DNA of 64,000 bases, taken from Nitrososphaerales archaeon (lineage in GTDB: Archaea > Thermoproteota > Nitrososphaeria > Nitrososphaerales > UBA213). The notes under the pieces were generated by a model that saw only the letters and a list, made by a program, of their open reading frames with translations, had not been told where the DNA came from and made no database searches. The position numbers and the translations under genes are program-made. Below are positions 1 through 5,207 of the stretch, one piece after another. The stretch is taken from positions 96,001-160,000 of the forward strand of contig CBDAOC010000020.1 of assembly GCA_965197925.1 (NCBI GenBank), in the 5' to 3' direction. The first letter of the stretch is position 1. Each line of letters opens with the position of its first letter.

Positions 1-483
1 CCCCTAAGGCTTGAAGGCAAGCTTTTTCTTCTTGATTTTGTTAGAGAGGTTTTCGAACAAGCTTCTATAGTGTACAATTCCGAAAAGTCTGGAGCTCTTG
101 AAATAGGTGGAGGTGTACCCAAAAACACAGTCCAACAGACTGGGCCTGCACTTGATCAGATCCTACAGGTCAATCATGGAGGTTTAAATTATATCATCCA
201 GTTGACTGATGCCAGACCTGATACCGGTGGATTATCAGGTGCTACATTACAAGAAGGAAAGAGCTGGGGTAAGGTGAAAACCTCTCATACAAATCTTGTA
301 ACTGTATATGGTGATGCGTCCATTTCATTCCCTCTGCTATGTGCATATGCAATTTCGAAACACGAACGCAGGCACCCGAAACGACTGTATACTAAATTAG
401 CTGATTACGCTGACAAGTTAAAAACAGTTTATGAAAGGGGGAAGAAACCAGAGAGTAAGATAAAAGGTTCAATAGGCAAATAA
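1..483 (+). CDS. Deoxyhypusine synthase family protein, C-terminal part (5' end lies outside the window)
   Basis: Motifs GGGVPKN, QLTDARPDTGGLSGATLQEGKSWGK and VYGDASISFP are typical of the DHS/homospermidine-synthase-like family. The frame is open from base 1. Confidence 0.9.
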   Translation, partial: PLRLEGKLFLLDFVREVFEQASIVYNSEKSGALEIGGGVPKNTVQQTGPALDQILQVNHGGLNYIIQLTDARPDTGGLSGATLQEGKSWGKVKTSHTNLVTVYGDASISFPLLCAYAISKHERRHPKRLYTKLADYADKLKTVYERGKKPESKIKGSIGK

Positions 484-991
484 TCCCTTGCGTATAAGAA
501 ATTCTTGAACTATTATTGTCATTATTCTTCCTAGTGACCAGAAGTGATAAAATCACATTTATACCATTGTTGAGTGATCGCGCTTCCAGAGGGATGTTCT
601 TACAATACTGGTAGACAATAGTTTTCAAAATAGTTATATCGATTGTGTCAACCAAGTTCCTAATTTTCTTCTATTTTCTTGTCCACGTATCCACTCACAA
701 TGGTAGTAACATCTCTAGAGATCACACCCAAGCCGTCAGTAATTCACTTCGTGAGCGGTTGCTTCCAGAAGGGATTGTACTTCCTAAATGTATTCGCCAT
801 ACAGAAAAAATATTTTCTATTCCTGTAGGAGAGAAATGAACTTAATTATCAATAATTTTTCCTAACATTAGAATGATATTCTAAGAATAATATTTACAAG
901 AGCAATCTAGTACTAAATATTATGTCATCAAATAAGGTTTGAAAACTAGAAATAAGTCTACATTTTATCTTTAGAGCAAGGGGAAGAGTGC

Positions 992-1858
992 ATGAGTTAT
1001 ACTAATTTGTTTCTAGCAGCACCTACAGTTTCGCAGAAAGGGATCAATGAAGAGTCCGATGTATACATATTTGGTATACCTTTTGATGCAACGTGTTCAT
1101 TTAGACCGGGGACCAGATTTGGACCAGATGCCATTAGACAAGCATTTGTCAACATTGAGATAAACTCTACACGCTATAATCTTAAATTGGAAGATTTGAC
1201 CATTGAAGATCTTGGAAATGTGAAGTTTAGTGTTAATACATCCACCATGCTCGATATGGTGGGTAAAGTTATGGGTGAAGTTATTGCGAAGAACAAGCAA
1301 ACTGTGATTTTGGGTGGCGAACACCTACTTACATATGGAACATTCATGAGCTTGCCGCATGATGTGGGTCTAGTGGTATTCGATGCGCATTACGATCTTA
1401 GAGATGAACTTACTGACACAAAGTTAAGTCACGGTACATTTTTGCGTAGAGTAATAGAGGAGAGAGGGAATTCTAATATTGTCCATGTTGGTGCAAGAGG
1501 ATTTAACACTGAAGAAGTGGATTTCAGAAATAAAATGAATTTAAAATCGATTTCTGGAAAGGAGTTGGTGAGTGGAACTGGTTTGAAGATGTTCAGAGAT
1601 TCTCTTTCGAGCTTTGATAACGTGTATGTAAGTATAGATCTTGATGTTGTAGATCCAGCATTTGCTCCTGGCGTAGGTACGCCAGAAGCATTGGGAATAA
1701 CACCACAGCAGTTAATGGATCTTATTTATGCTATGGAAGACAAAAAAATAAAATATTTTGATATTGTAGAATTGTCACCTCCATACGACAATGGTGCAAC
1801 TGCGACATTAGCAGCAAAGCTAATGGCAGAGACAATTATCATGAATTCTCGACATTAG
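992..1858 (+). CDS. speB: Agmatinase (ureohydrolase family)
   Basis: GIPFD..GTRFGP, GGEH, DAHYD and SIDLDVVDPAFAPGVGTP ureohydrolase motifs. Confidence 0.92.
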   Translation: MSYTNLFLAAPTVSQKGINEESDVYIFGIPFDATCSFRPGTRFGPDAIRQAFVNIEINSTRYNLKLEDLTIEDLGNVKFSVNTSTMLDMVGKVMGEVIAKNKQTVILGGEHLLTYGTFMSLPHDVGLVVFDAHYDLRDELTDTKLSHGTFLRRVIEERGNSNIVHVGARGFNTEEVDFRNKMNLKSISGKELVSGTGLKMFRDSLSSFDNVYVSIDLDVVDPAFAPGVGTPEALGITPQQLMDLIYAMEDKKIKYFDIVELSPPYDNGATATLAAKLMAETIIMNSRH

Positions 1859-3243: not shown

Positions 3244-3435
3244 TGTTGTATGTGGTTGGTTCAATGATGAAGAAGGCTAAATGAACCGATAAATTGATTT
3301 GAAATAACATGTAAGGATTTTATGTATTGAGGGTGGACAACGAAATATGAGATTGACAATGACCAGGTTTTCATGAATCTCCACATTTTATCAGTTCAAT
3401 ATGATATGAAAATACTGTATTGAGTTACTTTTGTG

Positions 3436-3448
3436 CAAAGATTTAATA
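3436..3448 (+). promoter_or_regulatory. BRE/TATA-like promoter of the tRNA-iMet gene
   Basis: CAAAGATTTAATA ends about 29 bp upstream of tRNA position 1 (3477). Confidence 0.65.
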
Positions 3449-3476
3449 GCTATCTAACCTGCTCATCTAAACTTGT

Positions 3477-3669
3477 AGCGGGGACTCCGTAGCGAGGTTA
3501 ACTACCCTACAAGGGTGGGGAAGCCAGGTCAACCCAAATGGGGCCGAATCCCGGCGGGCTCATAATCAACTTAATGAGAGACCCGCAGAGCGGTGATCGA
3601 ATTTGGTTCGCAGATTCGACCGCAAGTTCAAGATGGGAGAAATCTCTCAGGAAAGTCCACCCCCCGCTA
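3477..3669 (+). tRNA. Initiator tRNA-Met(CAT) with five introns. Exons: 3477-3480, 3513-3531, 3549-3564, 3581-3595, 3626-3632, 3656-3669
   Basis: The joined exons give AGCGGGGTGGGGAAGCCAGGTCATCCCGGCGGGCTCATAACCCGCAGAGCGGTGGTTCAAGTCCACCCCCCGCTA (75 nt). This has an A1-U72 acceptor stem AGCGGGG/CCCCGCT, D-stem GGGA/TCCC, anticodon stem GCGGG/CCCGC with loop CTCATAA, and T-stem GGTGG/CCACC with loop TTCAAGT. Each junction is BHB-like. Confidence 0.93.
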
Positions 3670-3842
3670 CTGCTTTCCAAACGAATAGAATCTATCCATT
3701 TTTCTAAAGTAATGGAATTGCTTTTTCCATCAATGGTTTAATATTACCAAAGGAACCATAATAATCAAACGCGTTAATTCCTGAACTCCCTCACAATTAA
3801 CCTCTCCTGATTTTCAAAAAACGTATGGATGCGACTAAATCT

Positions 3843-5207
3843 TTAGGAAAGTTTCACTACAACATCCATTTGAATTGAATTATATGATCCGAATCTACAA
3901 TACCAATTTGGCTTTAAAACCCATTCCCATCCATATTTTTCTATTCCATATCTCTGTATTGGTTTTGTCAGATGCCTTTGTGCTTTAGGCAATGGAATGT
4001 ACAATCCTTCTTTGACATCCCTTGATATTTCTGTGCTTATTTTTTGTATTGTGCGTTCCCTTACACCACAACTTTCACATTTGTATCCCTTATTAAACCC
4101 GGCAGATTTGAGTCTCTTACCACATCTTTTGCATTGTGGATTTATGTAACTTAGCTTGTGGGCAAGTTGCAGAATTTTGATATATTCTAGATTAATCACT
4201 TTTGGATGCTTCATAGTAGCTTTTCGTACTCCACCACCAATTTCAATTAAATCACTAATGCTCAACCTTTGTGACAATTGACTTAATCCAGTAGGCTCAT
4301 AAACCGCACAAAAGGCTATACCGTTTTGTGTTTTCAGGTTAAAGAATGTGTGTCCCCCCTTGATCGTGTAAGGAAGATTTTCAACCGTCCCTTTCATAAA
4401 ACCAGATGTATGTGGTTTCAGCCTAGACAGATCAAGTTCATGTGTTAAATGCATGTTTGTACCTTGATTAGTTCTAAAGATAATATAACCTTCAAGCTCT
4501 TCTTGTATATCGAGCATAAGAAATGCCCGTAACAAAATGTTATCTGCTTCTCCTCTAATCCCGCAAAATATTGGGTCGGGTCCTCTAGGCGTGATCAGAA
4601 CTCGTTCGTTCTTGTAATCATAATTGTTGTATGTATTTGGGTAGGTTCGTTCGTTCATTGAAATGATTTGCATTTTTGATATCTCTCTAGGCTTTCCATG
4701 GTTTGCATATTTCCTATACGCTATTATCTCGAATGTATAATCATGGAGTTCAGCTCCTATAGCAGATAATGCACCTACAATACCTCGACCATTTCCGAGT
4801 TCGTATGTATAGATTCCATGAGTTTGCGCAACCTTCCTTGCGAACTTTCTACTTATGACATCGTGATATGCCTTCTTCGTCAATTCCTTTACATCAATCG
4901 GAATAGTTTTACCAGAATAAAATACAACGCAAGGGTTGGCGCCAGTGAATGTATGAGAATTTTTTTCTACTAAGTTTTTTACACCTTTCACTACTATATT
5001 CTCATTATTTACCTCTACGTGCAAGGCAATTGCACCATTACCTCTGGTTTTCCATGGAATGTTAGGGTTAAGCCTAACCAGTAATGGATAATCTAGAAAC
5101 TTCGCATTTAGCTTCAGTAAAAAATCAACTATCTTGTAAGCTAAATAAGTAGTACACATACCTTGTCGAGAGTCAGTATCATCCAGACCAATATGCAATA
5201 ATGGCAT
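3843..5207 (-). CDS. tiaS: tRNA(Ile2) 2-agmatinylcytidine synthetase
   Basis: IGLDDTDS..GMCTT, LVRLNPNIPWKTRGNGA, TNQGT, an OB-fold region and a C-terminal zinc ribbon. Confidence 0.95.
   Translation of the reverse strand: MPLLHIGLDDTDSRQGMCTTYLAYKIVDFLLKLNAKFLDYPLLVRLNPNIPWKTRGNGAIALHVEVNNENIVVKGVKNLVEKNSHTFTGANPCVVFYSGKTIPIDVKELTKKAYHDVISRKFARKVAQTHGIYTYELGNGRGIVGALSAIGAELHDYTFEIIAYRKYANHGKPREISKMQIISMNERTYPNTYNNYDYKNERVLITPRGPDPIFCGIRGEADNILLRAFLMLDIQEELEGYIIFRTNQGTNMHLTHELDLSRLKPHTSGFMKGTVENLPYTIKGGHTFFNLKTQNGIAFCAVYEPTGLSQLSQRLSISDLIEIGGGVRKATMKHPKVINLEYIKILQLAHKLSYINPQCKRCGKRLKSAGFNKGYKCESCGVRERTIQKISTEISRDVKEGLYIPLPKAQRHLTKPIQRYGIEKYGWEWVLKPNWYCRFGSYNSIQMDVVVKLS

Follow-up and report, generated by a model that had tools for sequence, protein, structure and literature searches.

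A predicted five-intron initiator tRNA-Met gene in a Nitrososphaerales archaeon, with a conserved leader copy of its acceptor strand as a putative splicing aid

The analysed window, a 64,000-nucleotide stretch of a Nitrososphaerales genome, holds a tRNA-Met(CAT) gene within positions 3470-3675 that neither ARAGORN nor Rfam recognised when run on the window. Removal by coordinates of five stretches bounded by BHB motifs yielded a 75-nt sequence that ARAGORN called as tRNA-Met(CAT), with all stems paired and A1-U72 as the acceptor stem's terminal pair. The spliced tRNA carries the marks of an initiator: the CAU anticodon, A1-U72 and, at the base of the anticodon stem, three G-C pairs in a row. 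Archaeal initiator tRNA-Met has three consecutive G-C pairs in this place, and A1:U72 is an initiator mark in archaea too. For eukaryotes, the same mark is stated in the excerpted text of PMC8450103. The same five introns came out of an independent splice-aware parser, whichever 5' start was used, and no second locus of initiator type was found in the genome of the window's organism (the host genome, G000). The window gene is an initiator tRNA-Met with five predicted protein-cut introns, the first of them four bases from the tRNA start (Table 1). All six exons are collinear within 179 nt, so that neither the separate transcripts nor the reversed order required of a split or permuted tRNA was found. 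For intron 2, a 15-nt D-loop intron at 3533-3547 was also considered; it has 4/4 central pairs but leaves a 12-nt D-loop, and the intron-free locus L005 favours 17 nt.

Table 1. Features of the initiator tRNA-Met locus in window coordinates.
Feature	Coordinates	Strand	Basis
Predicted archaeal promoter, BRE and TATA-like TTTAATAG at 3442-3449	3435..3449	+	Conserved in family f1 loci
Leader copy of acceptor 5' strand (putative decoy), 9 bp with 3662-3670	3475..3483	+	Folding, shuffles, relatives
Leader spacer; C3487-C3488 with G3514-G3515 form outer BHB helix, G3489-T3490 half of central helix	3484..3490	+	BHB anatomy
Exon 1, tRNA positions 1-4, A1 of A1-U72	3491..3494	+	Invariant in 19/19 loci; cut after it in a relative's RNA
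Intron 1, 18 nt, position 4/5, hBHBh'	3495..3512	+	BHB anatomy, genome scan, relatives, modelled cost
Exon 2, positions 5-21	3513..3531	+	BHB anatomy
Intron 2, 17 nt, position 21/22, relaxed motif (3/4 central pairs)	3532..3548	+	Absent in L005, fully paired in L003
Exon 3, positions 22-37, anticodon CAT at 3561-3563	3549..3564	+	BHB anatomy
Intron 3, 16 nt, canonical position 37/38	3565..3580	+	Absent in L006
Exon 4, positions 38-52	3581..3595	+	BHB anatomy
Intron 4, 30 nt, position 52/53, strict motif	3596..3625	+	Absent in L006 and L007
Exon 5, positions 53-59	3626..3632	+	BHB anatomy
Intron 5, 23 nt, position 59/60 (3/4 central pairs)	3633..3655	+	BHB anatomy
Exon 6, positions 60-73; 3' acceptor strand 3662-3668, discriminator A3669, no encoded CCA	3656..3669	+	Sequence

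The gene is flanked by an ORF without an NCBIfam family on one side and by a convergent TiaS-like gene on the other. This adjoining TiaS-like agmatidine synthetase gene (window 3843-5207, minus strand) scores below the NCBIfam cut-off, and ORFs whose translations resemble agmatinase and deoxyhypusine synthase lie nearby (window 1-1858, plus strand). The host genome encodes two EndA paralogues, one of them with beta-subunit matches, together with RtcB and RNase P RNA; the presence of the paralogue pair suggests an EndA of the two-subunit type. The same tRNA gene was found in named records of Nitrososphaerales and Nitrosopumilales MAGs and of Ca. Nitrosocaldus, and intron-free orthologues exist among the relatives.

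The position of the 5' splice site of intron 1 depends on which of two repeats opens the gene. The hexamer GTAGCG is present at 3475-3480 and again at 3489-3494, and each copy can pair with CTAC at 3507-3510 to give the same mature tRNA. At the second copy the BHB consists of two outer G-C pairs (CC/GG), a fully paired central helix (GTAG/CTAC, 4/4), the bulges CG^A and AA^G and a 3-bp intron helix (GGT/ACC). At the first copy the central helix is likewise 4/4 with both bulges present, but the intron helix is limited to 2 bp and the outer helix to two G.U pairs. The modelled cost of forming the BHB in the host is 4.0 kcal/mol at the second copy versus 17.1 kcal/mol at the first. A strict genome scan for acceptor-stem introns, set at three or more intron-helix pairs, returned four hits. 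Two of them were implausible and a third was an off-register version of this locus, which leaves the 18-nt intron as the only credible one. Nested removal (18 nt, then the remaining 14 nt) was checked by hand and rejected, as two copies of the same 4-mer pair at no more than 2/4 positions and form no second BHB; the relatives oppose it too, the first copy being no valid exon in 11 of 19 loci.

An earlier sequence-only reading had placed the tRNA start at 3477 and the 5' splice site at 3480/3481. The letters it named are all present (GTAG 3475-3478, CTAC 3507-3510, the bulges CG^G and AA^G, CTTGTAG/CTACAAG, and AGCGGGG at 3477-3483), and its acceptor-stem intron at 4/5, with the 3' half-site CTAC, AA^G and a cut at 3512/3513, is upheld; registers shifted to junctions 5/6, 6/7 and 7/8 have 0-1 of 4 central pairs. 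Its 5' side had to be revised: position +1 is 3491, the intron spans 3495-3512 and AGCGGGG belongs to the leader. A leader GT does form part of the central helix, as had been proposed, but the bases are G3489-T3490 and not G3475-T3476. The suggested extension of the leader pairing through CTTGTAG/CTACAAG would abolish the cut site, since it takes in the 3' bulge. The idea that the intron must be excised before RNase P acts stands for an RNase P cut at 3490/3491, but not for one at 3476/3477, which leaves the BHB unharmed.

To place the boundary across relatives, genomes were searched with a pattern made of the 3' half-site and exon 2, which variant forms would escape. Matches were obtained in 18 of the 401 genomes of the order, namely the host, 5/8 genomes of family f1, 11/11 of family f8 and 1/97 of family f9. 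The genome_contigs scan gave 25 hits, of which 14 were this tRNA (13 duplicates of known loci and one new locus, L057) and 11 were non-tRNA chance matches that were dropped. The resulting 19 intron-bearing loci represent approximately four lineages only, and counts over them, which were made by script for the pairs, are not independent trials. At all 19 loci intron 1 starts after the second copy, with a length of 14-59 nt; exons are conserved among the relatives and introns variable. The central helix is paired in 76/76 cells, the leader pair being G-C in 10 loci, G.U in eight and a compensatory A-T in one. The first three intron-helix pairs are intact in 57/57 cells, with swaps between G-C and A-T and between C-G and T-A. 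Covariation in the relatives shows the pairing of a leader GT with CTAC, at the second GT. The second copy reads AGCG at every locus, and the first reads AGCG in eight, AGTG in eight and GGCG in three. In 11/19 loci the first copy would change A1 or C3, and it is therefore not an initiator 5' end there. Over 18 loci the modelled BHB cost was 0.0-7.0 kcal/mol at the second copy versus 12.3-20.8 kcal/mol at the first, and at L031 the first copy gives no pairing with the intron for a BHB.

The intron helix h' measures 2-8 bp across the 19 loci; the outer helix h has 2 bp in the host and is missing in most f8 loci. Several of the features that define archaeal BHB introns were found together: a 4-bp central helix, 3-nt bulges, a flanking helix, a restored cloverleaf and genes for EndA and a ligase. 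Apart from its unusual place, intron 1 is an ordinary BHB intron. The new locus L057 shows a compensatory central helix, a 28-nt spacing between copies, apparently extra T-stem introns and a gene length of 189 nt.

RNA from a relative bears on the same boundary. RNA run X1 (Logan contigs) was found via the relative L035 and held 0.06 of the L035 words, with exon 1 and the leader outside coverage. A 120-nt contig of this run (depth 19.9) matches L036 (G058, family f8) from 1568 to 1479 with 0 mismatches, and its last 29 bases recur at its start, which describes a 90-nt cycle. The joint connects A37 (L036 1479) to the first base after the second GTAGCG (L036 1568). Since the bases flanking both ends differ and there is no microhomology, the joint is exact, and each end of the circle falls on a 5' cut site predicted for EndA (4/5 and 37/38). 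We read the circle (L036:1479-1568, minus strand) as a mis-ligated or exon-skipping product of multi-intron splicing that contains intron 1 and exon 2. It supports an in vivo cut after the second copy in this relative, as a 5' cut in a side product seen in one contig of one run. The 3' cut and correct ligation are unseen in it, and a reverse transcription or assembly artefact is possible, though two predicted sites are hit exactly.

The upstream copy of GTAGCG is part of a longer leader element that copies the 5' strand of the acceptor stem. In the minimum-energy fold of the host precursor, positions 3475-3483 pair with the 3' acceptor strand over 9 bp, and none of 5000 leader shuffles paired equally well with this strand (0/5000). 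All 19 intron-bearing initiator loci have a leader copy, of 7-11 bp and -13.0 to -21.6 kcal/mol; the host is among the four in which the decoy is a perfect 7-mer. Leader pairing at 20 intron-free initiator loci reached only -0.9 to -7.4 kcal/mol. A further intron-free locus, L007, has a D-arm insertion that made the script discard it and was judged by eye to have a single copy, so that a leader copy is present in 0/21 intron-free initiator genes. Changes within the copy follow its partner: all 11 that fall on copy positions 1 and 3 still allow a G.U pair with the 3' strand, and at L031, whose acceptor stem has A5-U68, the leader copy likewise has A5 opposite U68. Over the 19 loci there are five mismatches between copy and 3' strand, at positions 6-7. 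Copy-to-copy distance varies from 10 to 28 nt, and the spacers and introns diverge.

The position of the copy is informative as well. In the host, the TATA-like box lies 49 nt upstream of 3491 and 35 nt upstream of 3477. It lies 41-49 nt before the true +1 in 18/19 intron-bearing loci, with no TATA-like box found at L057, and mostly 30-36 nt before the start in intron-free loci. These spacings place the copy at the point from which intron-free genes start, and it likely lies close to the beginning of the transcript. For comparison, the partial text of PMC3218864 gives TATA spacings of 30-49 nt in Thermofilum. At three genes, it is the first copy that lines up with the single copy in the intron-free relative G003 (L007, L082, L096). 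One possibility is that insertion of a duplicated, intron-bearing exon turned the old 5' end into leader; the other is that G003 has lost what lay between the repeats. G003 has neither intron nor copy at initiator Met (L007), Gln and elongator Met, and carries D-arm insertions at two of the three. The copy in the leader is real and conserved, a likely helper element that the literature apparently does not describe.

Other tRNA genes of the host genome were ranked by leader pairing. Forty were parsed, with contig C16 left out; from 28 unparsed ARAGORN candidates, 22 were inspected in addition to tRNA-Val(GAC), and two were dropped as false. Ranks 1, 3, 4 and 5 of 40 go to the four tRNA genes that carry an intron within their first 10 positions. 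Besides the initiator, three more host tRNAs with acceptor-proximal introns have a leader copy. The first is tRNA-Gln(UUG) (L077, G000:C20:187685-187792, plus strand), with a 21-nt intron at 10/11 and a 7-bp copy; intron and copy occur together in 7/8 family loci of this gene, and G003 has neither. At L078 (G000:C20:321461-321580, minus strand; isotype uncertain), an insertion right after position 7 accompanies an 8-bp copy; the pattern for this tRNA (C20:321461-321563) had no match in eight relative loci. The third is of tRNA-Ile2(CAU) type (L079, G000:C19:563255-563384, plus strand); its intron, at about 9/10, is 24 nt long, and its copy measures 6 bp. Rank 2 is held by elongator tRNA-Met (L076, G000:C20:487570-487680, minus strand), which has a strong copy and no acceptor-proximal intron. 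For elongator tRNA-Met, the copy occurs without an intron in G000 and G008 and together with an 8/9 intron in G006 and G002; G003, G001 and G004 have neither. Among the genes examined, no acceptor-proximal intron was seen without a copy, while a copy without an intron was seen.

Folding models indicate what the copy could do. The unspliced true strand (leader GT, AGCG and intron AGG) can pair at 8/9 bases with the 3' end; such pairing would use up the central helix and present RNase P with a site too early. At 19/19 loci the modelled pairing of decoy and 3' strand is stronger than that of the unspliced true strand, and over positions 1-7 the decoy is never stronger than the spliced strand; with flanking pairs included, the copy is the stronger in 9/19 until the trailer is trimmed. 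When the decoy was blocked in the model, trapping of the true strand rose from <0.001 to 0.32-1.0 in 18/19 loci. BHB formation then became costlier by at least 0.5 kcal/mol in 12/19 loci, cheaper by at least 1 kcal/mol in four and was unchanged in three. The minimum-energy fold of the host precursor is without the BHB, and a hairpin at about 3503-3517 competes with it. The sequence-only reading had expected an alternative acceptor fold to compete with the BHB; the pairing of copy and 3' strand is instead compatible with it and, according to the model, most likely promotes it. In the spliced host model the decoy stays in place (P 0.91-1.0); pairing between the spacer and the freed strand puts the true cloverleaf some 10 kcal/mol above the minimum. 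The putative final swap would thus need tertiary folding or enzyme action beyond the model.

Taken as a whole, the locus is probably best explained as an initiator tRNA-Met gene with five predicted introns, in which intron 1 occupies 3495-3512 at position 4/5 and the leader copy likely serves as decoy and tether in splicing. Transcription would start near 3470-3473, and both copies would in that case be in the precursor. The modelled 9-bp pairing of the copy would then keep the 3' acceptor strand occupied; otherwise the true first strand would be held there, unavailable. Leader GT and A1-G2 pair with intron CTAC to form the BHB, as covariation shows, and a two-subunit EndA would cut after G4 and before G5, the 5' cut being seen in the relative's RNA. 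The decoy helix may hold the 4-nt exon until RtcB ligation. In the last and weakest step, the continuous true strand would displace the decoy and RNase P would trim at 3490/3491, perhaps after a first cut at 3476/3477. As a tentative generalisation, to which we give somewhat less than even weight, archaeal pre-tRNAs may use a strand-swap switch: a duplicated acceptor 5' strand would turn the old 5' end into a decoy and license acceptor-adjacent introns, with binding in the order unspliced < decoy <= spliced, so that splicing itself would flip the stem and RNase P could make the true 5' end no sooner than that, perhaps by cutting twice.

Other readings of the locus were weighed against this one. 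A tRNA start at 3477 with a 32-nt intron 3481-3512 that uses leader G3475-T3476, as the sequence-only reading had it, would have both bulges and 4/4 central pairs in the host, the same mature tRNA and the 35-nt TATA spacing of intron-free genes. This version failed the strict acceptor-stem scan and, besides its modelled cost of 17.1 against 4.0 kcal/mol and a helix extension that swallows the 3' bulge, it would give G1 or U3 in 11/19 loci and no intron pairing in L031, and the relative's RNA is cut after the second copy; we regard it as very improbable. That the locus is a decayed or unspliced pseudogene might be suggested by the missing ARAGORN and Rfam matches, but five BHB removals lead to a fully paired 75-nt tRNA of initiator type at the sole such locus found in the genome, and its exons are conserved where introns vary, which leaves this reading with almost no probability.

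The function of the copy, rather than its presence, is the subject of two further readings. The copy could be a functionless relic of the short duplication that brought the intron-bearing exon, with splicing proceeding without it. Its placement matches that of the single copy in intron-free relatives (L007, L082, L096), in G000 and G008 elongator Met retains it with no intron present, and in 7/19 loci it has no modelled benefit for BHB formation. A relic is nevertheless unlikely: the copy is kept in 19/19 intron-bearing loci of about four lineages while spacers (10-28 nt copy to copy) and introns diverge, its changes preserve wobble or track the 3' strand, similar pairing occurs at three other host tRNAs, and no intron-bearing gene without a copy was among those seen. 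Alternatively, the copy could act only after cutting, tethering the 4-nt exon 1 for RtcB as split-tRNA leaders do, with no help to the BHB. Once both cuts are made, exon 1 is left with no more than 2 bp to exon 2, and in most f8 loci with none; the folding result is mixed, and the RNA circle is the type of mis-ligation that a tether would limit. Against an exclusive role of this kind, the decoy outcompetes the unspliced true strand in 19/19 loci, and copies also accompany introns at 8/9 to 10/11, whose first exons are longer. We hold a tether-only role to be improbable as the full account; it is not exclusive of the decoy-and-tether explanation, with which it is compatible.

Comparison with known systems places intron 1 close to the archaeal non-canonical BHB introns. 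In the partial text of PMC4090602 these include position 3/4 in some Thermoproteales, credited there to Sugahara et al. 2008, and relaxed motifs. The window introns share with them the 4-bp central helix, the two 3-nt bulges and the cut after the second bulge base, as well as relaxed HBh' forms, a two-subunit EndA and several introns per gene. They differ in that 4/5 is absent from the positions named in that text (an open list ending in 'etc.'), and in that the window motif needs two leader bases and has a conserved leader copy. An acceptor-arm 'intron' is mentioned only for permuted algal tRNAs in the excerpts of PMC3400036. Similar to the leaders and trailers of split and permuted tRNAs in Nanoarchaeum, Caldivirga and Thermofilum (excerpts of PMC4090602, PMC3218864 and PMC4033280), the flanking transcribed pairing would hold pieces for EndA and a ligase. 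In contrast to those tRNAs, the window gene is one transcript in normal order. Its helper pairs with an exon, the 3' acceptor strand, lies outside the BHB arms removed by EndA and must later be displaced, whereas split-tRNA leaders pair with each other (PMC4090602 and PMC3218864, in part).

Up to three introns per gene are given in the excerpted texts of PMC8450103 and PMC4033280, and up to five in one gene for Asgard archaea in that of bioRxiv 10.64898/2026.10.13.758758. The Asgard tRNAs are like the window gene in having up to five intervening sequences per gene that are missed by standard annotation; they belong to another phylum, and the excerpted text of that report does not use the word 'leader' and pools acceptor-stem insertions as 'other'. 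Integrating elements also leave a 5' tRNA piece repeated upstream of a gene. As described in part of PMC3293823, such direct repeats of tRNA fragments are 25-44 nt long and flank kilobase insertions with a recombinase, unlike the window-type copies, which measure 7-11 nt, show wobble drift and are situated within the predicted transcript, 10-28 nt upstream. An att direct repeat, which would flank an inserted element with an integrase, does not fit the window, as the copies are 14 nt apart with no ORF in between. The literature searches turned up no account of an acceptor-strand copy in a leader; leader pairing at 3/4 introns may be treated in Sugahara 2008 and Fujishima 2010.

Introns in or adjacent to the acceptor stem pose a folding problem, because the strand of the splice motif has a stronger partner at the 3' end of the tRNA, and with acceptor-proximal introns cutting leaves a first exon that is too short to remain bound. 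A leader copy would solve both problems and would provide a simple rule for the order in which EndA, RtcB, RNase P and RNase Z act. It also suggests a concrete route by which acceptor-proximal introns could be gained, through a short duplication, and lost, through deletion between the repeats. Leader copies further explain why annotation tools miss or mis-start these essential genes. The arrangement is present in the initiator tRNA of all 11 genomes of one family (f8) and in Ca. Nitrosocaldus, a genus with cultures.

Contig C16 of the host genome (150 kb) carries 28 intron-free tRNA genes at 24-97 kb, including Ile(UAU), beside an intron-rich host set; this contig is possibly a virus, a mobile element or a binning contaminant.
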